DNA of 64,000 nt from an uncultured Clostridia bacterium (GTDB taxonomy: Bacteria; Bacillota; Clostridia; TANB77; CAG-508): contig CAKPHG010000004.1 in assembly GCA_934157035.1 (NCBI GenBank), positions 53,594 through 117,593 of the forward strand, in the 5' to 3' direction. Position numbers and translations under genes: made by a program. The notes under the pieces were generated by a model, which worked only from the letters and a program-made list of their open reading frames with translations, was not told the DNA's origin and did not search any database. Shown in pieces: positions 24,706 through 59,965 of the stretch (its first letter is position 1; every line of letters starts with the position of its first letter).

Positions 24706-24812
24706 CCTTTTTTACTTTGTAGCTATATAATATCATAAAACAAAATATTTTTCCACTCATTTTTCTAAACATTGTACCGAATTGAGAAAAAGTATCAGTT
24801 GAGGACTATCCC

Positions 24813-25777: not shown

Positions 25778-27100
25778 TTAGCCTTTCTCTAATATTCTTT
25801 TTTCCTTTTGTGTTTCCGTAACACTATTACTTAATACTATAGTTCCAACAATAGATATAATTATAAATATAAAAATTATTTTCAAATTATTCAAATTGTG
25901 TGAAAATCCAACAAATATTAATAACAAAGTATAACCTAATATTCTTCCAATATTTAAAAATAATTCTCTATATAAAAAATACTCTGTATTGTATTTATCT
26001 TTATATTCCTTCTTATTAGAATAATTAAATAAATTGACTTCTGTAATTTTTAATATAATATTCATAAAAATGTAATAACTGATATTGTATAAAATAATAG
26101 AATTCATATTTATATTGTTCATTACTAAAGCAAAAGTAATAAAAAGAAATCCTAAAGAAAAACCTAATATAATCTTTTTATGTTTTTCCTTATAAAATTT
26201 AGCAAATATATACATTGTTAAAATAGAGCATAATGAAAGTAATGATGATATCCAACCTAATTCAAATTCATTCTTTGTATTATATATAATTAATAACGAT
26301 ACAACTAAACTCATAACTCCATATCTATTTATGCCTTTTAAAAATTCAATAGCATACAATTTTTTTAATGTTTTATCCTCTTTCAATTTATTAGCAAATT
26401 CTTTTACTTTTATATTTGATGTTTGTATATTTTTATTTTTTATATTAAAAGTATTTAAAATTTTAATAATTGAAAATATTAATATTAAAATTGCAGCTAC
26501 TTGATATGATTTTAAAGTTATATAAGCACCTAATATTATAGGAACAACAAAACTTATTATTTCTGTAAAAACAGAAACTAATCCTATGTATTTTGTTCTT
26601 TCTTTTTGCAGAATACTTTCTGACTCCATCATATTTAATGGAAATCCTGTAGTCGCTGTAGAAATACCATACATTATCCCAATTATATATACAAAATTAA
26701 TTATTTTATCTCCCATTACAATTATCATAAAAATATATAAAGCTTTTATAATAGTTCCAAATCTATATAATTTAATTTTATCTTTCTTTTTTATATAGTT
26801 AGCAACAATAAATGCACCTATTGTTGCTACTATCCATCCAACTATATTATAAATTGATAAATATAAAATATTTTGTTCCGTAATTTTATAAAAGTATGCT
26901 GCTAAAAATACATCTAAAAATATACTTATAACTTTTCCTATTGTTTGATCTACAATGAGTGTTTTAGCAGGTTTAGAAAGTCTATTACTTTGTTTTTTAT
27001 TAATATTACCTGTGTTTTTTAATTCTTTATCGTGTTCTACATATTCTTTCAATAATTCTTCATTAAAATTTGATGTTACATTATCTATTCCCATTTTCAT
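25778..27100 (-). CDS. MFS-type transporter whose first ~35 codons derive from a 5'(3')-deoxyribonucleotidase gene
   Basis: 12-TM MFS-like body. N-terminus MKMGIDNVTSNFNEELLKEYVEHDKELKNTG matches N-termini of dNT genes at 54834..56264 and 32049..32636. AAGGAG RBS before ATG 27100. Confidence 0.75.
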   Translation of the reverse strand: MKMGIDNVTSNFNEELLKEYVEHDKELKNTGNINKKQSNRLSKPAKTLIVDQTIGKVISIFLDVFLAAYFYKITEQNILYLSIYNIVGWIVATIGAFIVANYIKKKDKIKLYRFGTIIKALYIFMIIVMGDKIINFVYIIGIMYGISTATTGFPLNMMESESILQKERTKYIGLVSVFTEIISFVVPIILGAYITLKSYQVAAILILIFSIIKILNTFNIKNKNIQTSNIKVKEFANKLKEDKTLKKLYAIEFLKGINRYGVMSLVVSLLIIYNTKNEFELGWISSLLSLCSILTMYIFAKFYKEKHKKIILGFSLGFLFITFALVMNNINMNSIILYNISYYIFMNIILKITEVNLFNYSNKKEYKDKYNTEYFLYRELFLNIGRILGYTLLLIFVGFSHNLNNLKIIFIFIIISIVGTIVLSNSVTETQKEKRILEKG

Positions 27101-27168
27101 TAATTGCTCCTTATTATTCACCATTTATATCTACTATCATATCATATTAATATAAATAAGAAAAGAAG

Positions 27169-27213: not shown

Positions 27214-28419
27214 TCATTCTTTTTTACTTACAAAATAAATTCCTAGTGTTATATATGATAATATTGCTAAACCAAAAGTAATTTTTATAACATTATCATT
27301 TTCAGACAAAACTGTATATGATAGTATTGGCAAAATCGCTGTTACAATTCCTTCTATAAATCTTTCAAAAGTAACATATGATGTCTGTAATTTATCTTTT
27401 GAAGCCTCATATATAGCAACATTATCAAATATTTCATAAGCTCCATTCCCCATTCCTAGTAATAAATAAATTATTGGTAATATATATATTAATATTTCAT
27501 TTGATGCAATAAATAAACTTGAAAAAGCAAATATAAATATCATACACATTGGTAAAATAACCTTTTTCCAATTCCTACTATTTGCTTTTCTTGACCAAAA
27601 CTTACTTGATACTGCTTCAGATAAATTTATTATGATATTTAACAAACTATAATAAATATAATTTATATTTAAATATCTAAGTAAGAAAACATTTAAATAC
27701 ATTATACCTATTCCATTTGCAAATCTATTTATTCCACATGTTATAATTATCTTTCTAAATTTTTTATCTGTTGCTGGAATTTTTATTGTATCCTTTATGG
27801 TTATTTTATCTTCTTTTATAGGTGGTTTGTATGTATTAATTCTTATTGTTATATCTATAAATGCAATTAAAAATACAATTGAAAATAAAATCATAAATCC
27901 GTATAACTCATACCCATTTTGTGTGAATCTATCAAGAGTAATTCCCATAATTAAGCTAAATAATAAAACTATGGTATTTTTATACATATTTTTCGTTGCT
28001 GCAAACTTAGTTCTGTCTTCTTTTTTTAATAAAGACATTCTCCAATTAACAAAAGTTATATATCCCATCTCTCCTGTAATTGCATATATTGAAGCAAATA
28101 TAAAGAACAATATAGTTCGTATGTTTACATCTCTTGATATAAACGGAATAATTGCGAAGCATACTGATGCCAGTCTGTATATTGAATAATTTGTTAATAC
28201 AACTTTTTTTGATTGTCCTATTCGTGAAAACAATGGTGCTGCAAATATTTGTAAAACATTCGTTATTGTATCTAAAACAGCATAAATTCCAATTGCCAAG
28301 TCTGATAAACCTAAATATACAGCAAAAGCTGATATAAACGATGTGCTAGCTATTTTATTGTTTGCATTATCTAGTACTGATGAAGTTAAGTATTTTTGGT
28401 ATTCCTTTTTATAGTTCAT
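27214..28419 (-). CDS. MFS transporter
   Basis: 401 aa, 12 predicted TM helices, MFS-like organisation. Confidence 0.8.
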   Translation of the reverse strand: MNYKKEYQKYLTSSVLDNANNKIASTSFISAFAVYLGLSDLAIGIYAVLDTITNVLQIFAAPLFSRIGQSKKVVLTNYSIYRLASVCFAIIPFISRDVNIRTILFFIFASIYAITGEMGYITFVNWRMSLLKKEDRTKFAATKNMYKNTIVLLFSLIMGITLDRFTQNGYELYGFMILFSIVFLIAFIDITIRINTYKPPIKEDKITIKDTIKIPATDKKFRKIIITCGINRFANGIGIMYLNVFLLRYLNINYIYYSLLNIIINLSEAVSSKFWSRKANSRNWKKVILPMCMIFIFAFSSLFIASNEILIYILPIIYLLLGMGNGAYEIFDNVAIYEASKDKLQTSYVTFERFIEGIVTAILPILSYTVLSENDNVIKITFGLAILSYITLGIYFVSKKE

Positions 28420-28427
28420 TTTTTCTC

Positions 28428-29240
28428 CTATTCTATTTCTAACTTTTCATTGCAAAAATGTAATTTATCTATAATATCTTGTCCTATATGTTTATTTGCA
28501 ATTTCTACAGCTTTTTCACAGTTCATAATTTGATATTTAAAGTGAGCATCTACTCCATATAATACCTTTAAATTTTTATACTCTGAAGCTATTTTCCAAA
28601 ATTCTTTACAAGGATACACTATACTTTCTCTTTTTCCTATTATACATTCATTAGGATGAGATAAATTAATTTCTATTGGTATTCCATATTTTTCTGCTGT
28701 ACTACAAATTATGTGTGCAACTTTTTCATCTACTTTTCTAAAATTTTGTCTACTTAGCATATATATATCAGGATGTGCTATTATATCTGGTATGTTTTTT
28801 TCAATCGCTATTTTTACATATTCCGCATATTTTAAAGCATCATCATCAGTAAATTCTTGTCTTCTTAAAATTTTAATATCATTATTTTCATCATATATAA
28901 AATGCTGTCCCAGAATTATCTTATCTGATTCATTTTTTATTTCAAATAAGTTTTCCTCTTGTCCTGGTAAATATTCAACTTCAAAACCAGTCTCTATTTC
29001 TATTTTATCTTTATACTTTTCTTTTAAAGATTTTATACTATTTAAATATTCATTTTTTTCACTATATTTCATTCTCATATTTTTTCTATAATCTATTTCT
29101 TCTTTTTCAGGGCAATGGTCCGTAAATGCTATCTTTGTAAAACCCTTTTGAATAAATAGTTTTACAAAATCTTCATCTGTCATATTATTATCAGCATGTC
29201 CACATCTTCTTGTATGTGTATGGTAGTTAAATTTTTGCAC
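28428..29240 (-). CDS. PHP-domain phosphoesterase, histidinol-phosphatase (HisJ) family
   Basis: NYHTHTRRCGHA N-terminal metal-binding motif and further PHP His/Asp motifs. Confidence 0.75.
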   Translation of the reverse strand: MQKFNYHTHTRRCGHADNNMTDEDFVKLFIQKGFTKIAFTDHCPEKEEIDYRKNMRMKYSEKNEYLNSIKSLKEKYKDKIEIETGFEVEYLPGQEENLFEIKNESDKIILGQHFIYDENNDIKILRRQEFTDDDALKYAEYVKIAIEKNIPDIIAHPDIYMLSRQNFRKVDEKVAHIICSTAEKYGIPIEINLSHPNECIIGKRESIVYPCKEFWKIASEYKNLKVLYGVDAHFKYQIMNCEKAVEIANKHIGQDIIDKLHFCNEKLEIE

Positions 29241-29958: not shown

Positions 29959-30873
29959 CTACTTCAAAAACTCATCATCTATTATTACTTTACTATTTTC
30001 TATTTTTACATTTACTCCAATTGGAATTATACTATTAACAATTTTATGACCAAAATCATTACATTTAATAATTGGAAAACTATATTCTTTAGTATATTCA
30101 AGCAATATATCTTCCATTTGTGGATATATATTGCCATCTTTTTTTAAATCATAATTATATCCAATTACAATACCGTTTATTTTATCAAATATACCATATT
30201 GTTTTAAATGAGCAAATCTTCTTTGACACTCATTTGGTGATGTTTCATAACTCTCGATAAATAAAATATTATGGTCAATACTTGGTAAATATTCTGTTCC
30301 AAGTAGGTACATCATACAACCTAAATTTGTTCCAATAATTTTTCCTGAAGAAATGCCATTTCTTATAACTTCTTTATTTTCATTATTAAATTTATCTAAC
30401 TTTTTATTTATAAAAGCATCTTCAAATACTTTATACTGTTCTTTAGAATTTGTGTCTCCAAATGATATAAAATTTGGTCCACTAAATGTAATTAATCCTG
30501 TTTTTTTATAAATCGTTTGAAGTAATACTGTTATATCGCTATACCCAACTAATATTTTAGGATGCTTTTTTATTTCTTCATAATCTAATAAATCTATAAA
30601 TGTATTGCATGTTTGTCCACCTTCTAAACATATTATTGCTTTTACTTCGTCATCTAAGAACATATTCATAAGATCTTCTGCTTTTTGTTTTCTTGTTCCA
30701 CAAGAGCCATAGTAATCTTCTTCTACATATTTTCCAAATTTGATTTTAAAATTTTTGCTTTCCAAAAATTGCTTTGCATTAGCAAAGTCATTATACCTAT
30801 TATTTAAAGCTAAACTATTTGATACCCCTACTATTCCAATAGTATCTCCATAATTTAATTTATCCGCTAACAT
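29959..30873 (-). CDS. LD-carboxypeptidase (peptidase S66; LdcA/MccF-like)
   Basis: GYSDITVL nucleophile-elbow motif and S66-like architecture. Confidence 0.8.
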   Translation of the reverse strand: MLADKLNYGDTIGIVGVSNSLALNNRYNDFANAKQFLESKNFKIKFGKYVEEDYYGSCGTRKQKAEDLMNMFLDDEVKAIICLEGGQTCNTFIDLLDYEEIKKHPKILVGYSDITVLLQTIYKKTGLITFSGPNFISFGDTNSKEQYKVFEDAFINKKLDKFNNENKEVIRNGISSGKIIGTNLGCMMYLLGTEYLPSIDHNILFIESYETSPNECQRRFAHLKQYGIFDKINGIVIGYNYDLKKDGNIYPQMEDILLEYTKEYSFPIIKCNDFGHKIVNSIIPIGVNVKIENSKVIIDDEFLK

Positions 30874-32045
30874 AGTTTCTCCCTTTTTCTTAAATATATC
30901 ATATAATAAGCTAAACTTATTTGGAATATCATAAATAAAGCAGATAAGCCAAACATATATCGTAATCCTTTTTCATACATTAGACCACACAAAAATACTC
31001 CTATTGCCTCTCCTAAAAATCTAATTATATGACATACATTTGAAAAACTTAATTGATATTTATTTTCTAATCTATTAATGTATACAGCATCACAAATATT
31101 TTCGTATGCTGTTGAAATAAATATTGACCAGGTAATTGCAATTAATGTAATTGCTATATTATTTGATACAAATGCTACTATATATCCTAAAAATCTTATT
31201 CCAAATTTTATAGTTACTGTTAGATAATCATTTTTAGGTGTTAAATATTTTAATGCTATAATTCCAAATATGTCTGCTAAAAGACCAATTACTAATAAAT
31301 AATTTGTTGCTACATTATCGCTAAAATTAAAATAATTTGTTAATGTTAGCATTTTTAATCCAAGTGCTGTTGACATTGCAATAGTTCCTATTAAAGTATA
31401 AAACAAATATAATATTAAAATTTTATCTTTAAAAATATATTTTGAAGATATTTCTTTATGTTCATTATTATTTTCTAAGTTATTTACTTTTATATTAAGC
31501 AATATAAATAGTGAAAACATTAAGAATAAATTTGCTATAAATAAGCAAACATTATAATTTATAAGCAATCCTGCAATACTTTTGCCTATAAATACTCCAC
31601 CAAATAAAATTCCAACATCTCTAAATAAATACTCTGTTAATCTTCTTTTGCTATAGATTGTTCCAGTTTTTACTATTGTAGTTATTAATGGATATATACT
31701 TGTGATTATTATGTATTCTGTTACAATATCTATTATTATCGATAATTTAATTTTTCCTACATAGCTTGTACTATTTAAGAAACATAACCAAAACATATTT
31801 ATAAATTTTATTAATATAACTATAACTAATACACTCTTTAGTCTATCTATCTTTACATATTTTCCAATCAATCCAATAATTACAACGCTTATTAAAGTTC
31901 CTATACTTAATATACTACTTATATTTGTAACAGCAAAATTATTATCTTGTAACCATAGTTGTCTAAAGTTTCCCCATAATCCAACTGATATGCTGAAAAA
32001 TGCTAACATTATTAGTATTTGATTTTCATTTTTTATTTTTTTCAT
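30867..32045 (-). CDS. MFS transporter
   Basis: 392 aa, 12 TM; overlaps upstream gene by 7 nt. Confidence 0.8.
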   Translation of the reverse strand: MKKIKNENQILIMLAFFSISVGLWGNFRQLWLQDNNFAVTNISSILSIGTLISVVIIGLIGKYVKIDRLKSVLVIVILIKFINMFWLCFLNSTSYVGKIKLSIIIDIVTEYIIITSIYPLITTIVKTGTIYSKRRLTEYLFRDVGILFGGVFIGKSIAGLLINYNVCLFIANLFLMFSLFILLNIKVNNLENNNEHKEISSKYIFKDKILILYLFYTLIGTIAMSTALGLKMLTLTNYFNFSDNVATNYLLVIGLLADIFGIIALKYLTPKNDYLTVTIKFGIRFLGYIVAFVSNNIAITLIAITWSIFISTAYENICDAVYINRLENKYQLSFSNVCHIIRFLGEAIGVFLCGLMYEKGLRYMFGLSALFMIFQISLAYYMIYLRKREKLC

Positions 32046-32048
32046 TTG

Positions 32049-32636
32049 TTACTCCATTTCATTTATGTAACTATATATTTCATTCCAATTTTTTAATTGT
32101 TTAATTTTATCATAATTATAAATTTCGTTAGTTATCATAATTGTTTGTATTCCAACATTTTGAACACCTAGACAATTATTAAGTTGGTCATCTATAAATA
32201 AATCAATTTTTTCATTTTTACATACAGATGATTTTTCTCTAGCGTTTACTATTAATTTATCATAATAAATTTCATTTTTATCCAGCCAATCTTTACTTAA
32301 TTTATATGGATCGTCATGAAATTCTGAATCTCTGGCTGTAATAATATATATTTCATGTCCCTCTTTTTTTAATTTATCTATTACTTCTTTTGCGTTTTCT
32401 CTTGGAGTTGCATTATTAGTAATATTTTCTTGAATATTTTTTAAGAAATATTTTAATTCCTCATATTCAAATTGAAACTTTTTTCTATATGTATCTCCAT
32501 TGTTTTTTATATCTTCCATTGGATTATCATAATTATCAATTTTCTTTCCTAAACTAATTGCATATTCAAATGCTGCTTTATTTAGTTCTTCTTGCACTTC
32601 AGTTAATGTATTGTCTATATCAATTCCTATTCTCAT
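32049..32636 (-). CDS. HAD-superfamily 5'(3')-deoxyribonucleotidase (NT5C-like), standalone copy
   Basis: MRIGIDIDNTL (DxD HAD motif I) and NT5C-like motifs; GGAGG RBS before ATG 32636. Confidence 0.8.
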   Translation of the reverse strand: MRIGIDIDNTLTEVQEELNKAAFEYAISLGKKIDNYDNPMEDIKNNGDTYRKKFQFEYEELKYFLKNIQENITNNATPRENAKEVIDKLKKEGHEIYIITARDSEFHDDPYKLSKDWLDKNEIYYDKLIVNAREKSSVCKNEKIDLFIDDQLNNCLGVQNVGIQTIMITNEIYNYDKIKQLKNWNEIYSYINEME

Positions 32637-33327
32637 TTTTTCCTCCATATTCATCATATATTTTTCCATCAGTAATTAAAAAATTTTCAACTGTATTTTT
32701 TATCTTTTCAATTTCATATCCATCTGCATTACAAATATTCCAGCCTCTTTTTTGTGCTGGAATCAAATTTTCCATTACATCATCTATAAATAAAATATTT
32801 GTTGGTTCAATTTTACAATCATTTTCTACTTTAATGTATATTTCTTCTTTTGGCTTTTTACATTCCATTTCAAAAGATAGCCAAACATAATCAAATTTTG
32901 ATAAATTGTAATGTTTATCTATTCTGTTTTTATCTAAAATGGATAAATTAGATAAAATTCCTATTTTGCATTTATCTTTTAAACTATGTGCAAATTTAAC
33001 AACATCTTTATAGTATTCAATTTTATCAAATTTTTCTTGATACATAGCATAAAATTCATCATAATTACATTGTATTCCAAATGATTTTTTTATTCGTTCA
33101 AACCATTTTTGTATATCTTCTTTTTTATATATTTCTGAAATACATTTATTATTTTCATCATGATTGCATTCATTCCATTTTTTTGTTATTGCATTTTCAC
33201 TTAATTTATTCTCAATCAAACTCTTTATTATATCTGTTCTTGCATTAAAAACGTTATATTCTCCTTCTCTGTGACTTTCTACTACTCCACCCCAGTCAAA
33301 AATTACTATCTTATTTTTATCTCTCAT
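32620..33327 (-). CDS. HAD-family hydrolase
   Basis: IVIFDWGGVV motif I; HAD-like sequence; GAGGAG RBS before ATG 33327. Confidence 0.65.
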   Translation of the reverse strand: MRDKNKIVIFDWGGVVESHREGEYNVFNARTDIIKSLIENKLSENAITKKWNECNHDENNKCISEIYKKEDIQKWFERIKKSFGIQCNYDEFYAMYQEKFDKIEYYKDVVKFAHSLKDKCKIGILSNLSILDKNRIDKHYNLSKFDYVWLSFEMECKKPKEEIYIKVENDCKIEPTNILFIDDVMENLIPAQKRGWNICNADGYEIEKIKNTVENFLITDGKIYDEYGGKNENRN

Positions 33328-44791: not shown

Positions 44792-44865
<74 letters not shown>

Positions 44866-44985: not shown

Positions 44986-46397
44986 TTAATTATTATCTGT
45001 TAATTTATTAAACAAATCCTTAAATATTTCGTTTGCATTTAAATAATTAACAAATTTAATTCTATGCCTGTTTTCGGTTAGTTTAAAAGTATTATCAGTA
45101 TTTATAAGTGGACAACTAACATCCATTGTATTAAACCAATTTTTATTTATCATATATGCTATTACACTAATATCCCATAGTGGCCATCTTTTAGTAGGAC
45201 CATAGGCTCTATTATAAAATCTATAGCATAAATAATCACATAATTCGTTTTTGCCTTTTAATTCACTTTCTAATTCGTATATTGATGTCATTAGATTCGA
45301 TGTTATAGGAGAACAAGGCATAACAGTAAGTTTAACTTTCGATTCAAAAACTACTTTTACCGCTTCTACATCTTGATCAAAATTGAAATCTTTATTAGGT
45401 CCAAATAAAAAATTACTTCCTAACCATATAATTTCTATCTTATCAACAATATCTGGGTTAGATTTTAATGCTAATGCTATATTTGTTAAACACCCTATTG
45501 CTAATATATATGTTTTTTTATTTTTGTTAGCAATTTCAATTATTTTATTAATGGCTGAATTTTTTTCATTATATCCATTTTTTAAATAATCACGGGAACC
45601 TTTATATATAAGTGATTTATCCTTTAATCCTAATAAATCAAATACTTTACATGCTTCATTGTAACTGGCATCTATAGAATCAGAAACTGTTCCTTGCCAT
45701 TTTTCATGTCTAAAAGGTGCTATTGTTATAGCGTCAATGTTGAATATTTCTTTGCTTTTTAGTAAATAAGATAATGCGAATTGGTCATCTGCTTCATTAT
45801 ATGTATCTGTATTCAAAATTACATTATATTTTTTTCACAGATTAAACTATATATTTCTTTCCATCCGTTTACTATTGGAATATTTAAATTATATTTCTCA
45901 TTATATCTTGTTTTCATTAAAAAACATTCTATTCCTGCGTTTAATATGTATTTACATTTATCTGCTTCATCATCAAACATAATATCAATACTATTTTCAA
46001 TACATTCTGGACTTTTATCTCTGCTTTTTGTAAATACTAATTTATCATATTTTATACCTTTTTCATTTAACCAATTTATAGTTACTAATTCATGGTTTTT
46101 AAAAAAATAATTTGATCTGTGTGTTATTAAAAATATCTCATTTTCTTCATATAATTTATTAATATATTTCTTAGCTCCTTCTATTAAATCAAATTTTTCA
46201 GCCATTCTATCCATATTATTGCGGATAAAATCTTCTATTTCCTCTGGGCTCCAATCAAACATTCCTTCAGTAATGTGTTTAGCTTTTTTGTTTATAATTC
46301 CTTTATTTCTTTTATTTTTATCTTCTTTTTCAAATTCTTCTAAAAATGTTTTATCTAAATCTGCTATTACATTATCAATATCTATTCCAATTCTCAT
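44986..46397 (-). pseudogene. 5'(3')-deoxyribonucleotidase-nucleoside hydrolase fusion gene interrupted by a -1/+1 frameshift in an A7 tract (ORFs 45819..46397 and 44986..45816)
   Basis: Upstream ORF = HAD dNT (MRIGIDIDNV...). Downstream ORF = IU-nucleoside hydrolase starting in mid-motif (NTDTYNEADDQFAL). The intact paralog 54834..56264 reads through the same junction (…KNYKKEKFNVILDTDTYNECDD). The shifted frame across plus 45829..45835 (T7) reconstructs KKYNVILNTDTYNE. Confidence 0.7.
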
Positions 46398-46579
46398 ATA
46401 ACAACCTCCAGTATAAAATTAAGTTTTAATCTATAAAAATTATACATTATATTACAATTTTTTTCCACACTTCCTTGAAAAAATCAGCATGAGTATTTCT
46501 ATATAGGTAATTTAGCAAATAAAATACCACTCCTAATACTTCAAACACATAATACAACTTATTTTAAACCTCTTTTTTA

Positions 46580-46695: not shown

Positions 46696-47748
46696 ATGCA
46701 ATATCAAGAAAGCGTCAGAATTCAAAGATGTGGTAACCGTGCAGGAGATACCTATGGACTGATTGAACTTCAACATATGGCAGATCCTAAATCAGTAATT
46801 GTGTCTCTTTGTGGGCAAAGGCTTTATCCGAAAAAATTCAATATCTTCGGTTGGCCGATATTTACAAAGGAAATCTGTGACCTTTTTGACTGGAAAGAGA
46901 ACTCTCTTGAAAGAATATATGGAAAAGATTACAGACTTACAGCATTAGTTACGTATGATAGTGCAAATGTCCACATCGACCCGCATGCAGTTAATTCTTT
47001 GGATGGAATTAAAAACGGAATCAAAGACCTTGAGTCTTTGAATAGATTACTCAGAGATAGAGTGATTTATGATAAGCTTTTAGGTAGGGGCAAACTCAAC
47101 AAGTATGTTATTTTTGGTAGATATAGCCTTGATGAATTTGCCCAGGTATGGACACTGGGTGAGCAATATGAAATCCCTGAAATGCCTATCGTTTGTACTC
47201 AAATCGGGTTCTATAGAGCTTACAATAAAGTAAAGCCTGATGCACTTGTATCTTGGGAAGGCAGATGCACTATTCCTTCTGAAGATGATAGTTGTCCTTG
47301 GTGTACCAAAAAATTTACTATTGAAGATGTAAGAAAAGGAAGATTTGACACTATCAATGGTAAAGTCGCCCATAGCGAATGTGCAAAGCAGTATGAACAT
47401 GAAAGGGAGATTAACAAAATTATTCATCGAATTATGGAATTTATCTATGAAGATGGATTAACCTTTGAACTTCTTCCTAATGGCTATTGTAGTCAACCGT
47501 GTTATGCTCATAAGCCTTGGTTTTTGTGTCATACTCCTGATGGTGACATCGAAATCGGCTGGAGAAAAAGAGTTATTTCTATTGAATGGAAAGATAATTT
47601 CAAACCTTTCGATATGAGTATTTTTGACAGCGAAGATGTTACTAAATGGGAGCGTGGCATTCACGCGTGGGGAAATGACAAAGCATATGAGTATATTAAA
47701 AAGGTAAAGGAATTTGTTAATCCTAAACCTGAAGAGAAAAAATCGTAA
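46696..47748 (+). CDS. hypothetical 350-aa protein, compositionally foreign (~40 % GC), with CxxC...HxxC putative zinc-binding element
   Basis: Strong AAGGAGG RBS; GC visibly higher than flanks; CPWC(x29)HSEC and further conserved Cys/His; no family recognised; own GC-rich hairpin terminator. Confidence 0.6.
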   Translation: MQYQESVRIQRCGNRAGDTYGLIELQHMADPKSVIVSLCGQRLYPKKFNIFGWPIFTKEICDLFDWKENSLERIYGKDYRLTALVTYDSANVHIDPHAVNSLDGIKNGIKDLESLNRLLRDRVIYDKLLGRGKLNKYVIFGRYSLDEFAQVWTLGEQYEIPEMPIVCTQIGFYRAYNKVKPDALVSWEGRCTIPSEDDSCPWCTKKFTIEDVRKGRFDTINGKVAHSECAKQYEHEREINKIIHRIMEFIYEDGLTFELLPNGYCSQPCYAHKPWFLCHTPDGDIEIGWRKRVISIEWKDNFKPFDMSIFDSEDVTKWERGIHAWGNDKAYEYIKKVKEFVNPKPEEKKS

Positions 47749-47868: not shown

Positions 47869-48420
47869 TCACCTATTTTCATAATTTCGAATGCTAATTT
47901 CTTTTATCATTTCTCCTGGATAATCATATAATGCTAATCTATCAAATTCTAAATAGAATGGCTTAAAACTATCCTTAATTGTGTTTTTCAATTCTAAAAT
48001 CTTATCATAATCTTTATCTATATGTAGAGTTAAATGAAACGTAAATTTCTCTGGATTATATTTTTCTTTTGGAAATTTATTAAAAAAGATTCTTTGTAAT
48101 TCTTTTATTTTCTCATTATCTTCTATTGCTAAATATAAAACAAAACTCTCATTTCTACATTTCATTATCTTAACATCATTTACTTTAACCTTTATCTTAC
48201 CCATCTCTATTTTTTGAGCTATATTTATTATTTCATTTTCATTTTCTTTGTTAGTTGCAAAAATAGTAAAGTGATATGGTAAATTATCAATATTGTATCT
48301 ATTCTCATCAATACCATAAGGAACTTTGCAAGTCTTTATTTGTATATTGTTCATTAACTTTTCTATCTTATTTAATTCTGTTTTATTCATAAAACTTATC
48401 ATCGTAATTCTCTTACTCAT
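47869..48420 (-). CDS. 2H phosphoesterase superfamily protein (LigT/ThpR-like 2'-5' RNA ligase / cyclic phosphodiesterase)
   Basis: Two HxT/S motifs: PYHFTIFAT and FHLTLHID, spaced ~80 aa apart in a ~180-aa protein. Confidence 0.65.
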   Translation of the reverse strand: MSKRITMISFMNKTELNKIEKLMNNIQIKTCKVPYGIDENRYNIDNLPYHFTIFATNKENENEIINIAQKIEMGKIKVKVNDVKIMKCRNESFVLYLAIEDNEKIKELQRIFFNKFPKEKYNPEKFTFHLTLHIDKDYDKILELKNTIKDSFKPFYLEFDRLALYDYPGEMIKEISIRNYENR

Positions 48421-48795: not shown

Positions 48796-49996
48796 TTATG
48801 GTTTTTCTAGTTTATACATTATTCTAGCATATATAGGTATAGAAATAGTAACTATCAATAATAATAATTTAAAGTATATAACATTATTCAACAAGCCTAC
48901 CAATAGCATTAGTATAAATCCTATTATTCTTCCTATTTCCATAAAACCTTCTGTGAAAGTATGATATTCTACTAACCATTTTTCTATATTATTTTCTTTA
49001 ACTGCATCATCTGATTTAATTTTAAACATAACTTCTAAAATATATACAGTTATGCTATATGTAAAATTATAAATTATTAATGTTGTTTTGCTTATATTTA
49101 ATATTAATCCTAATACACCTAACACTACTAATGTAGCACAAAAAATCAATAATCTTTTTGCATATTTTTTTTTGATATAATTTATTAAATAAATATAGTG
49201 ATATCATAGAAAATATAGAGAATATAGTTGTTAATATTCCAAAATTAAATGATGTTTTAAAAGTCATAATTGTTATTATAACTACTAATACTCGTATTGT
49301 ATCCATCATAATTCCATATAAAAAGGCTAATTTATAAACTTTATTTATATTCTCTTTTTGTTTGCTAGATAAACTGGTTGTATATTTTTTTAAACTATAT
49401 TTTTGAATTTTATCGTCAATAACAAATTTGTTAGTATCTATTTGTAATGACATTATTATTTGGAATAAAGTTAATACAAATATATATATTGCTATGTTTC
49501 CAAAAGATGTTAATTCTATAGAGGTTCCTAATATTATAGGAACTAATATATTGATAAATTTACTTAAAATTCTTTTTGTTGTCATATATTTTTTTCGGTT
49601 TTCATTATCGACTATTTGTGTATTCATTACATCATGTGTTGACTAGTATAAAGCTTCTGCAATGCCATAAAAGATTGCAAAAATTATAAAATATTGACTT
49701 ATTTTATCTTTGAACAATACTATTAATAATATATAAATCGATTTGATTATAATACCAAATCGATAAATTGAAACTTTTTTTTTAGGTTTGCTTTTGATTA
49801 TATTACCTAATAAAATACTTCCTACACCTAATAGTAAATATAAAATTATATAAAATGTTGAAACTTGTATTATATTTTCATTAGAAATTTGTAAAAAATA
49901 TGCTACTAAAAAAGTTTCGCCAAATAAATTTATAATACCGTTGGTTAGGTCACATGCCATTAATGACTTTGCACTTCTATCTAATTTAGTTTTCAT
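48796..49996 (-). pseudogene. MFS transporter pseudogene broken into three frames (49643..49996, 49067..49627, 48796..49149); paralog of 25778..27100
   Basis: Fragments align consecutively to the intact MFS (e.g. KKVSIYRFGIIIKSIYILLIVLFKDKI vs KIKLYRFGTIIKALYIFMIIVMGDKI); frames switch and overlap. Confidence 0.7.
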
Positions 49997-50093
49997 TTTT
50001 ATTTTCCTTTCAAATAAAATTCCATTTTATTATACATTATATTACAAATTTCTTCCATTCCCTTTTGAAAATATATAGGAATGAGAATTATTA

Positions 50094-53689: not shown

Positions 53690-54298
53690 TTACAAGTTTT
53701 CTTTTATTTCTGGAAATAAATCATATAAATTATATCCTAATAAATTATCAAAGTATTCTTTTAATTTATATGTTTCCTTTACATGATATTGTGTATTTGA
53801 ATATGCACCTCTTCTAATGATAATATCAATTAATCTTTTATCTATTGTATATACCTTTTGACCTTGAGGACACATTAAGTCACATAAGTTTATTATTTTT
53901 TCTTCTATTGTATATTTATGATTTTTTATAAAGTCTGTCAAAAATGGATTATCTTCTGGTTTTGGACCTCCCCCTGCAGTGCAAGTAATATCATTATTTA
54001 AATATGAATGTGTTAGGCATATATTACAATATTCCTCATCATACCCTTTGTCTTTTAAATAATTATATCCTCTCATAACATGTCCTTGTGATTCCCCATT
54101 ATATTTTCCTATATCGTGCACATAACCTAAAGCTATTGTTTTATCAACATCTACTTTATATCCTTTTTCTTCTAACGCTTTAGCAATTCTTCCAGCACTA
54201 TTTCCAACATATAAACAATGTTCTATCCATCTATCGTCTTTTGTATATTTTCTTTCCTCTTCTAATAAATTTCTTGCTCCTTCACTTGTTAATTTCAT
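53690..54298 (-). CDS. HD-domain phosphohydrolase
   Basis: H...HD metal-binding pattern (IEHCLYV...YVHDIGK); 4-nt overlap with upstream gene. Confidence 0.7.
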   Translation of the reverse strand: MKLTSEGARNLLEEERKYTKDDRWIEHCLYVGNSAGRIAKALEEKGYKVDVDKTIALGYVHDIGKYNGESQGHVMRGYNYLKDKGYDEEYCNICLTHSYLNNDITCTAGGGPKPEDNPFLTDFIKNHKYTIEEKIINLCDLMCPQGQKVYTIDKRLIDIIIRRGAYSNTQYHVKETYKLKEYFDNLLGYNLYDLFPEIKENL

Positions 54299-54831
54299 AG
54301 TTCATACTCCTTTATTTCACAATTTTCTTGACCGCTCACATTTAGTAACATCCCATCTTCTGGCATTTTTTCAAAATAAAATTGCATAGCCCTTGCTACT
54401 GCTCCATGAGTAACTAGTAAAATATTTTTATTATAATATTTTTCTTTTATATCATTTAAAAACGAATGAGTCCTTTTAAATAAATCTGGCAATGTCTCCA
54501 AACCTTCAACAATGTTTTTTGAATAATAGTTATAATACTCTTTAAAATAATAATCATCAATAATTGTATTAGTCAATATTCCTCCATCTCTTTCGATAAG
54601 CCTGTCATCATAAATTACTGGAATATTGTTTGCATTTATTATTTTACATGTATGCTTTGTTCTTTTCATTGGTGAACATATAATTAAATCTATATTCAAT
54701 TCCTTAATTTTTCCTCTTATATTTTCAGCTTGTTTTATTCCAATCTCATTTATATCTTCATTATATCTACAATTATATTTATTTTCTTTATTGCAATTCG
54801 TTTGTCCGTGTCTTACTATATATATCTTCAT
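54295..54831 (-). CDS. histidine phosphatase family (PGAM/CobC-like) protein
   Basis: MKIYIVRHGQTNCN = RHG catalytic motif; second His region VTHGAVARA. Confidence 0.75.
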   Translation of the reverse strand: MKIYIVRHGQTNCNKENKYNCRYNEDINEIGIKQAENIRGKIKELNIDLIICSPMKRTKHTCKIINANNIPVIYDDRLIERDGGILTNTIIDDYYFKEYYNYYSKNIVEGLETLPDLFKRTHSFLNDIKEKYYNKNILLVTHGAVARAMQFYFEKMPEDGMLLNVSGQENCEIKEYEL

Positions 54832-54833
54832 AC

Positions 54834-56264
54834 TTACTCTCCTAATTTTTCAAATAAATCATTATAAACACTATTTGCATCTATATAAGTTACCATTGTT
54901 ATATTATGCCTATTAGTTGTTATTTTATATGATGTATCTTCTTTTATATTTGGACAATTTATATCTTTACTTGTAAACCATTTTTTATTTATCATATAAG
55001 CAATTACAGAAATATCCCATATAATTCTTCTTTCTTGATTTCCATGATAGCTATCGTTATAAAATCTACTTATTAAATAGTTGCATAGTTCACTTTTATC
55101 TTTCAAGTGATGATTTAATTCATATATTGATGTTCGTAAATTAGATGCTACATTTTTGCAAGGTATTACTGTTAATTTTACTTTAGACTCAAATACTGTT
55201 CTTACTGCTTCAACATCTTGTCTAAAATTGAATTCTCTATTATTATCTTGTAATAAGCTATGTCCGCCTAGCCAAATTACTTCTATTTTTTCAATTATTT
55301 TAGGCTCTTTCTTTATTGCTAGCGCAATATTCGTAATTGCCCCAACTGCTAATATATATGTTTTTTCATTTTTTAATGCTATTTCAATTATTTTATTAAC
55401 CGCTTCATTTTCTTCATTATATCCATTTTGCAAATAATCTGTTGAACCTTTAAATACTTTATCTGTTGTATCAAAATTTAACCAATTACATATTTTTAAT
55501 ATTTCATTATAGCTTAATTCTTGGCTTTCCTCAGTAGTCACATTTTTTACTTTATGCGAAAATGGTGCAACTGTAATTGCTTCTATATTAAATACATCTT
55601 GTGATTTTAACATATATGAAAGTGCAAATTGATCGTCACATTCGTTATATGTATCTGTATCTAAAATTACATTGAACTTTTCTTTTTTATAATTTTTAAT
55701 GTACTCATATATTTCTTTCCAATCTTTAACTCTAGTTAAGTTTTCTTCTTCTCTATTGTAAGGCTTGTCCTTTATAAGTGTAGTTATTCCGCTTTCTACA
55801 CAATTTTTACAAATGCTAATTGAATCATCTATCATTACTTCTATATTATTTTCAATACATTTTTTAGATTTTTGCATTTTGTCACGAGCATCTGTAAAAA
55901 TTAGTTTATCATAATATATATTATTTTCTTGTAGCCATTCTTTTGTCATATTATAAGGATCTGAATAATCTCCATTATCTCTTCCAGTAATTATATATAT
56001 GTTATGACCATCTTCTTTTAGTTTATCTATATATTCTTTTGCTCCTTCAATTACTTTTAAGTTTTTAACGATTCTTTCTATATTTTCTTTATAAAATGTT
56101 TCATCTTCCTCTTTGCTCCAGTCAAACATACCATTTCTGATATATTTAGCATTTGGATTTATTATTCCACTATTTCTTAATTCTTTATCATGTTCTATAT
56201 ATTCCTTTAATAGTTCTTCATCAAAATTTGAAATAACGTTATCTATATCTATTCCTATGTTCAT
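54834..56264 (-). CDS. intact fusion: N-terminal HAD 5'(3')-deoxyribonucleotidase + C-terminal inosine-uridine-type nucleoside hydrolase
   Basis: N-term MNIGIDIDNV (HAD motif I), NT5C-like body; C-term ILDTDTYNECDDQFAL (nucleoside hydrolase DxDxxxDD Ca2+ motif) and IUNH-like remainder. 3 nt from next gene (operon). Confidence 0.8.
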   Translation of the reverse strand: MNIGIDIDNVISNFDEELLKEYIEHDKELRNSGIINPNAKYIRNGMFDWSKEEDETFYKENIERIVKNLKVIEGAKEYIDKLKEDGHNIYIITGRDNGDYSDPYNMTKEWLQENNIYYDKLIFTDARDKMQKSKKCIENNIEVMIDDSISICKNCVESGITTLIKDKPYNREEENLTRVKDWKEIYEYIKNYKKEKFNVILDTDTYNECDDQFALSYMLKSQDVFNIEAITVAPFSHKVKNVTTEESQELSYNEILKICNWLNFDTTDKVFKGSTDYLQNGYNEENEAVNKIIEIALKNEKTYILAVGAITNIALAIKKEPKIIEKIEVIWLGGHSLLQDNNREFNFRQDVEAVRTVFESKVKLTVIPCKNVASNLRTSIYELNHHLKDKSELCNYLISRFYNDSYHGNQERRIIWDISVIAYMINKKWFTSKDINCPNIKEDTSYKITTNRHNITMVTYIDANSVYNDLFEKLGE

Positions 56265-56331
56265 ATTTCTTCTCCTATTTTATTTTTCTAATCCTTTATA
56301 CTTCTTCTTAAACAGAAGTAGCATAGTATAA

Positions 56332-57286: not shown

Positions 57287-57360
<74 letters not shown>

Positions 57361-59882: not shown

Positions 59883-59965
59883 GCTGATGTGGCGGAACTG
59901 GCAGACGCACTGGACTCAAAATCCAGCGGGAAACCATGTGGGTTCGAGTCCCACCATCAGCACCA
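59883..59965 (+). tRNA. tRNA-Leu (anticodon CAA)
   Basis: GCTGATG acceptor, GGCGGAACTGGCAGACGC D-arm, anticodon loop CUCAAAA, long variable arm, TTCGAGT T-loop, CCA encoded; terminator hairpin at 59998..60030. Confidence 0.85.

Follow-up and report, generated by a model that had tools for sequence, protein, structure and literature searches.

Why does a gene for a membrane transporter begin like a nucleotidase? The question is raised by a minus-strand gene at 25778..27100 of a 64,000-nucleotide stretch of DNA from an uncultured Clostridia bacterium (contig CAKPHG010000004.1; the whole stretch is referred to here as the window). An earlier reading of the letters without database searches, the sequence-only reading, held that a transporter of the MFS superfamily had captured the start codon, the ribosome-binding site and about 35 codons of a deoxyribonucleotidase (dNT) gene. 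The origin that it saw stands, as the start codon, ribosome-binding site and about 36 codons are of NT5C nucleotidase type, but the mechanism of capture and its recency do not. We propose that the gene is very probably a deletion derivative of an NT5C–MFS fusion gene, shorter by 154 codons than its full-length relatives, in which a stub of the nucleotidase survives as the carrier of the initiation signals.

The gene and its parts are the following (pN/pS, ratio of nonsynonymous to synonymous polymorphism; handles beginning with P denote related proteins, those beginning with L related loci):

25778..27100, minus strand: coding sequence of 440 amino acids (aa), consisting of an NT5C vestige, a linker and an MFS transporter with 12 transmembrane helices; identified by its open reading frame (ORF), a Pfam MFS_1 match, an AlphaFold2 model and the exact protein on 17 contigs.
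27107..27112, minus strand: Shine-Dalgarno sequence AAGGAG, 6 nucleotides (nt) 5' of the conserved ATG at 27100; kept in the short-form relatives L002, L003, L005 and L006.
26993..27100, minus strand: NT5C (HAD) vestige, codons 1-36, with strand β1 carrying a disrupted motif I and helix α1; identified by alignment to full-length fusions, blastn and tblastn against window paralogs, a low-confidence AlphaFold2 tail and raised variability.
25778..26992, minus strand: linker and MFS body, under purifying selection; 85.5-87.7% nt identity to the fusion genes L001 and L004, pN/pS 0.17-0.31.

The ORF itself runs over 25778..27124 and contains two in-frame ATGs, at 27124 and 27100, of which the latter is the start conserved in relatives and the former is specific to the window allele. 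Membership of the MFS superfamily (PF07690, MFS_1) follows from both profile and fold. Pfam finds MFS_1 alone in the 440-aa protein (38.9 bits against a cut-off of 33.4, E=6.3e-10), and the AlphaFold2 model (predicted local distance difference test score, pLDDT, 86; predicted TM-score 0.83) shows long helices over residues 43-439 in a 12-helix fold, in agreement with the earlier description of everything after the start as a 12-helix MFS protein. The N-terminus, MKMGIDNVTSNFNEELLKEYVEHDKELKNTGNINKK, resembles the MNIGIDIDNVISNFDEELLKEYIEHDKELRNSGIINPN of an NT5C gene elsewhere in the window. NT5C (PF06941) comprises the 5'(3')-deoxyribonucleotidases of the HAD superfamily (human cdN/mdN type, per the Pfam description), and the stub corresponds to their strand β1, motif I (DxD) and helix α1. 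It keeps only about 36 of about 190 residues, and its motif I is broken by a two-residue deletion. The NT5C profile has no Pfam match in the 440-aa window protein, of which only residues 1-36 are homologous to that family. HAD motifs II-IV fall inside the segment deleted from the window gene and motif I has gone from GIDIDNV to GIDNV; lacking motifs II-IV, the gene cannot be a nucleotidase. The right annotation would be an MFS transporter with a dead 36-residue vestige, neither a nucleotidase nor a chimera made by recent recombination.

The rest of the nucleotidase is found in the relatives. A homolog search that covered about 5.8 billion proteins returned a protein of the same short form (P0001, 95% identical, 442 aa), and the next-nearest homologs, 80-89% identical over the MFS part, are 587-601 aa long and carry both PF06941 and PF07690. 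These are NT5C–MFS fusion proteins of uncultured gut Clostridia (P0002-P0005, P0013, P0015-P0019, P0021-P0028, P0034-P0036, P0047 and P0060; for example, metagenome-assembled genome RGIG8531, contig JAGAKS010000019). All four HAD motifs, I (DxD), II (T/S), III (K) and IV (DD), are kept in 23 of the 24 full-length fusions, and the AlphaFold2 model of P0002 (pLDDT 87) shows a HAD domain at residues 1-193 and a 12-helix MFS domain at 198-581. Alignment of the proteins shows that the window protein corresponds to P0002 without its residues ~37-192. In the full-length fusions, stub and linker form one stretch with a complete NT5C domain; the window gene shares their start region and the linker KKQSN, and lacks the complete NT5C domain continuous with the MFS. 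Its MFS body, at the identities given above, is nested among the fusions in a neighbour-joining tree. At the DNA level the two forms part here:

26993..27000, minus strand: deletion junction, where an ATAAAAA microhomology links NT5C codon ~36 with the KKQSN of the inter-domain linker; by DNA comparison, the closest full-length gene is longer here by 462 nt (154 codons).

In that closest full-length gene, L011 (encoding P0003), the sequence is ..ATAAATAAAAATGCA.. on the left and ..GTTATAAAAAAACAAAGT.. on the right, and in the window it is ATTAATAAAAAACAAAGT. The 462-nt loss is in frame and bounded by two ATAAAAA repeats, and the microhomology is present on both sides in full-length genes.

Based on these comparisons, we propose the following course of events. 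The ancestor would have been a two-domain gene of about 590 aa, with an N-terminal cytoplasmic NT5C-type HAD nucleotidase and a 12-helix MFS domain. In the lineage of the window species, 462 nt would have been deleted in frame between the two ATAAAAA repeats, presumably by illegitimate recombination or replication slippage between these A-rich microhomologies. The deletion would have spared only strand β1 (motif I) and helix α1 of the nucleotidase and joined them to the linker (…NKKQSNRLSK…). Selection for continued expression of the MFS domain would then require that the upstream start and the frame stay. The stub would have survived because the fusion has a single initiation region: only in-frame deletions that spare the NT5C promoter, ribosome-binding site and ATG leave the MFS expressed.

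Could the junction be a product of assembly? The source is probably a metagenome-assembled genome, and the region is AT-rich with many short repeats, conditions under which a chimeric join or a collapsed region might arise. The identical 440-aa protein nevertheless recurs on 17 contigs, drawn from metagenomes that are independent and differ in sample and assembler, in the same gene context (PHP, second MFS, gene, RsmF). Four further assemblies (L002, L003, L005, recorded as 'uncultured Clostridium sp.' UMGS1612, and L006, a Hadza metagenome-assembled genome) share 95-97% identity and synteny with the window and have the identical DNA junction; moreover, the reading frame is intact and the MFS body is under purifying selection. 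We therefore consider an assembly or sequencing artefact to be a negligible prospect, and the recurrence of the in-frame stub–MFS join indicates that it is genuine. The sequence-only reading had named long reads as the check on misassembly; what speaks here is the 17 independent contigs and the four assemblies.

The resemblance of the stub to other NT5C genes of the window, on which the idea of capture was founded, has to be set against its resemblance to the fusions. The genes concerned are:

54834..56264, minus strand: paralogous NT5C module fused to an inosine-uridine nucleoside hydrolase (IUNH), 476 aa; identified by Pfam NT5C and IU_nuc_hydro matches and by alignments to the stub.
44986..46397, minus strand: second NT5C/IUNH pair, which the window allele carries as separate ORFs of 192 aa and 276 aa; identified by Pfam and by a 4-nt indel relative to a fused 471-aa allele in L014.
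32049..32669 and 30867..32045: HAD/dNT–MFS pair.

Intact NT5C members are present in the window at 54834..56264 and 45819..46397. In pairwise local alignment, 27118..27000 aligns with 56284..56159, which holds the ribosome-binding site and 5' end of the first NT5C–IUNH gene. The stub matches 56246..56159 strongly (in blastn with E=1e-19 and 82% of 89 nt identical, in tblastn with E=2.6e-13 and 75% of 32 aa identical) and the NT5C gene starting at 46397 less strongly (E=6e-10, 71% of 115 nt identical), and the dNT gene at 32049..32669 has no significant similarity to the stub (tblastn E=1.6). Judged by these alignments, the resemblance is far beyond chance for two of the three dNT genes with which the earlier reader had matched the N-terminus, and a likeness confined to a few chance residues does not fit the nucleotide alignment.

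Such a likeness is what would be expected had a stand-alone MFS gene recently gained its promoter, ribosome-binding site and first ~35 dNT codons by recombination or duplication with paralogs of the same genome, and start capture is known in the family (below). The orthologs point elsewhere. For this comparison the L005 version of the stub was used, which is without a 6-nt deletion found in the window allele: it has 88/84/84/80% identity to four full-length fusions at their 5' ends, and 80% and 75% identity to the NT5C paralogs of the window. The stub is thus nearer to the fusion orthologs than to the two window paralogs, and nothing points to exchange with the latter. The codons immediately after the junction, KKQSN, belong to the coding inter-domain linker of the fusions, and the non-coding DNA upstream of the gene is only 38-45% identical to that upstream of the paralogs, which is background. 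(Upstream non-coding DNA shows background similarity outside the species; having no conservation between species, it was dropped as a marker of orthology.) A 46-nt element common to two other loci, which might have lent weight to shuffled promoters, is absent upstream of 25778..27100. The stub pattern thus fits vertical descent from a fusion gene and lends no weight to gene conversion or to capture from a paralog, and we regard recent capture as extremely improbable.

The second NT5C–IUNH gene shows variation of its own. It is split (NT5C 45819..46397, IUNH 44986..45816) in the window, L013 and L015, and is a single 471-aa fusion in L014 (8231..9646), on a scaffold that also holds the exact window MFS allele. 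Split and fused forms differ by a 4-nt indel, GAAAAAAAT[AAAT]ATAATG (window 45816..45830); the fused L014 allele rules out a 1-nt slip in an A7 run as the cause of the split at 45816-45819.

Two separate neighbours, an upstream NT5C gene and a downstream MFS gene, could also have been merged by a deletion, with no fusion as the starting point. This arrangement exists: in L008 and L009 a separate 198-aa NT5C gene lies directly upstream of the orthologous MFS gene, and in the window a dNT gene lies directly upstream of an MFS gene at 30867..32669. The arrangement in L008 is derived, however, since its NT5C ends in …NYKKEKV like the NT5C–IUNH type and its MFS has a start of another source. Specifically, the MFS protein of L008 (6382..8227) and L009 (3862..5707), P0008, takes its ATG and first 10 codons (MQKFNYHAHT) from a PHP-phosphatase gene; this start matches the PHP start of L001 at 33 of 34 nt, and the MFS gene lies 22 nt downstream of the separate NT5C gene. 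Start capture from another gene is thus a genuine event in this family, but the window gene is no instance of it. That gene retains linker codons of the fusion type, and with 24 full-length fusions spread over the clade, a fusion is the parsimonious ancestor. A merger of two genes is in our view very improbable, and we retain deletion from within a fusion.

The genes next to the fusion in another species also adjoin the window gene:

27214..29240, minus strand: the two genes upstream, one for a PHP-family phosphatase (28428..29240) and one for a second MFS protein, MFS2 (27214..28419); the same pair is linked to the intact NT5C–MFS gene in L001.

Thus, the window gene and the NT5C–MFS fusions are alike in the MFS body, the first 36 residues, the linker and, in L001, the PHP and MFS2 neighbours; they differ in the 154 codons with HAD motifs II-IV and in the surrounding gene order. 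That order is fusion, PHP, MFS2 in L001 and PHP, MFS2, gene in the window, so the locus has also been rearranged. A possible second NT5C remnant in L001, suggested by ORFs of 38 and 234 aa downstream of MFS2, was ruled out, the 234-aa ORF being a distant MFS paralog.

Two further length differences were observed around the gene within the species group. At ~27172, between 27214..28419 and 27100, the window allele is without a 586-nt segment that is present in L002 (7342..7929), L003, L005 and L006; the segment holds, on the opposite strand, an ORF of 193 aa without a significant Pfam match, and the junction is clean (AAATGTCCTT joined to ATTCTTCTTTTC). Downstream of RsmF, a segment of ~840 nt with a 211-aa HD_3-domain gene occurs in L002 (10344..11183), L003 and L006 and not in the window (24740..24785) or L005, and is therefore a presence/absence polymorphism within the species group.

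What has become of the stub since the deletion? The window allele shows one further lesion:

27083..27088, minus strand: allele-specific 6-nt deletion, in which one ATAGAT tandem unit is lost (GIDIDNV to GIDNV) and the catalytic DxD is disrupted; identified by DNA alignment with L002, L003, L005, L006, L001 and L004.

In sister alleles the stub has D→N, F→S or E→K changes. Among five alleles, 7 of 37 stub residues and 22 of 404 body residues are variable (Fisher p=0.0065), an about four-fold higher variability in the stub, and pN/pS is about 0.65-1.05 for the stub, on very few substitutions, against 0.17-0.31 for the body. In the AlphaFold2 model of the window protein, residues 1-9 and 30-37 have pLDDT <50, and a lone helix is predicted at 14-26. 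The transporter body is maintained by purifying selection, and we propose that the stub behaves as a decaying vestige, a flexible cytoplasmic tail retained only for its initiation signals and probably with no function beyond supplying the translation-initiation region. Loss of the same two residues (ID) of GIDIDN as in the window allele is also apparent, from protein alignment only, in P0055 (MKISIDNCTS…), where it would represent parallel slippage in the GATATAGAT repeat.

It could also be imagined that the stub has been co-opted for a new role, for example as a regulatory or targeting N-terminal helix or as an mRNA leader element. All alleles keep its frame and start, a helix is predicted at residues 14-26, and the first few codons have been kept independently in different lineages. 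The need to translate the MFS explains the retained start more simply. Variability four-fold above the body and pN/pS near 1 do not suggest a constrained peptide, the retained length ranges from 4 to 38 residues across lineages with no common peptide conserved, and no Rfam element occurs in the region. Co-option is accordingly an improbable account, and a vestige left by deletion the better one.

The window gene is one case of several. In-frame deletion in multidomain bacterial genes is a well-known route to domain loss, gene fission or fusion, and the features seen here (a deletion between short direct repeats, initiation signals kept, a vestigial peptide left) are those of in-frame domain loss in general. 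Different here is the recurrence, with the same domain collapsed at least five times and with one lineage in which the domain was replaced by the start of a PHP gene. NT5C-type starts with junctions of their own are found in P0011 (MKTRIDIDNVTLN joined to KVIKKQ…), P0032 (MRIGID to KNAKYN…), P0050 (MKIG to IYKKESK…), P0055 (MKISIDNCTS to YLNK…) and P0061 (MKIG to KKYISNY…), and the retained stub is 4 to 38 residues long across lineages. P0053, at 570 aa, is degenerate, with a D→N change and a gap inside the domain-bearing sequence. In the neighbour-joining tree of the MFS body, short forms are interspersed with full-length forms. From these junctions, the NT5C domain has collapsed in frame independently at least five times in one narrow family. 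The family illustrates cleanly how a fusion gene is constrained: since the downstream domain relies on the initiation signals of the upstream domain, the latter can be lost only by in-frame internal deletions that keep the first codons, as occurred here at least five or six times.

Over deeper time, the NT5C module also seems to have changed partners. Two NT5C–MFS genes share a downstream neighbour with the NT5C–IUNH gene of the window (region 53690..56264): a histidine-phosphatase gene in L004 (8001..10328, 75% aa identity) and an HD-domain gene in L012 (295..2767, 81% aa identity). Relatives of NT5C also occur in proteins of about 477, 485, 480, 391 and 283 aa. Because of these shared neighbours and varied lengths, the comparison suggests that NT5C is a promiscuous N-terminal module with swapped C-terminal partners. 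Together with the PHP-derived start of P0008, this gives the notion of shuffled 5' ends a place in the deeper history of the family, and not in the recent origin of the window gene.

Several points weigh against descent by deletion from a fusion gene. No full-length allele was found inside the same species group, and the deletion is read from other species at 85-89% identity. The differing gene order of L001 and the window leaves strict positional orthology unproven. The neighbour-joining tree of the MFS body carries no support values, the pN/pS (dN/dS) comparison for the stub counts very few substitutions, and we infer both the start site and the substrate.

As to what the transporter does, solved structures were compared with the model of P0002, the full-length relative, in place of that of the window protein. 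Foldseek against the PDB returned MelB, NorA, ferroportin and VMAT (probability 1.0, target-normalised TM-score 0.64-0.74), with which P0002 shares the 12-helix MFS fold at a sequence identity to solved structures of 9-15%. For subfamily or substrate class, there was no NCBIfam assignment, no PDB sequence match and no match to a known nucleoside MFS family. It is possible, if somewhat doubtful, that the transporter handles nucleosides or related compounds, a suggestion based on the ancestral nucleotidase fusion and the nucleotide-catabolic neighbourhood. NT5C–MFS proteins, which sit among nucleotide-catabolic phosphoesterases and nucleoside hydrolases, are reasonable candidates for experiments on nucleoside or nucleotide transport.

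P0002 was matched end to end by only one 50%-identity representative among 1.84 billion proteins, and no description of an NT5C–MFS fusion was found in the full-text literature searched. The pairing is narrow and apparently undescribed, and found in low-GC gut Clostridia. A bolder proposal, which we hold to be unlikely, is that the intact NT5C–MFS protein is an undescribed enzyme-coupled transporter, in which the tethered cytoplasmic nucleotidase would dephosphorylate (deoxy)nucleotides at the mouth of the transporter and so couple hydrolysis to nucleoside efflux or nucleotide uptake. If this were true, the window gene and its relatives would form a natural series of nucleotidase-domain deletions, with coupling repeatedly dispensable when other NT5C fusions (NT5C–IUNH) are present. 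The window gene is an instructive but ordinary example of domain loss; the uncharacterised fusion family is the more interesting lead.

The window contains a further MFS gene that had been set beside the first as its broken copy:

48796..49996, minus strand: distant MFS paralog, a pseudogene with an ordinary short N-terminus of its own; identified by an in-frame TAG and a frameshift.

Its start, MKTKLDRSAKSL, is an ordinary stand-alone one, as the sequence-only reading had seen in calling it unrelated. The reading frame is interrupted by a TAG (49645..49643) and shifted close to a run of nine A at about 49165. Both lesions recur at the DNA level in four other assemblies, and the exact 186-aa fragment is on 23 contigs, so that the paralog is a true pseudogene that has become fixed. 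It shares only 29-36% identity with the intact gene, falls outside the whole family in the neighbour-joining tree, and is an old, distant paralog and no recent duplicate. Recent duplication and recombination, which had been proposed to have shuffled dNT 5' ends among these genes, are thus opposed both by this distance and by the closeness of the stub to the fusion orthologs.

The promoter modules said to be about 85% identical upstream of the pseudogene and of the split NT5C/IUNH pair correspond to a real direct repeat at these two loci, 50029..50074 and 46439..46484. It is short, with 80% identity over 46 nt around an exact 19-mer core (TTGTAATATAATGTATAAT), and was not found upstream of gene 25778..27100 or of the other NT5C or MFS genes. 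The repeat may be a shared promoter or operator. A promoter scan gave results no better than shuffles, and a terminator was not found. At the gathering threshold, Rfam matched only three tRNAs in the window, at 44792..44862 (plus strand), 57290..57360 (minus strand) and 59883..59962 (plus strand), and no element near 25778..27100.

The window has a G+C content of ~26%, and nearly all of its genes are on the minus strand. Together with the PHP phosphatase, the second MFS gene, the HAD/dNT–MFS pair and the second NT5C/IUNH pair, the nearby genes form a neighbourhood with a flavour of nucleotide catabolism: NT5C–IUNH 54834..56264 is followed by a histidine-phosphatase gene and an HD-domain gene, and one more gene is of this kind:

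47869..48420: LigT-like 2H phosphoesterase.

No defence-system signal was obtained with PADLOC for P0002, NT5C–IUNH, the window protein or a 350-aa Cys-rich ORF at 46696..47748. This last ORF, on the plus strand, had no Pfam, NCBIfam or PADLOC match. It lies on the strand opposite to almost all else, in a stretch of higher G+C content (0.30) without GC skew, and is conserved at the same place in L013-L016.

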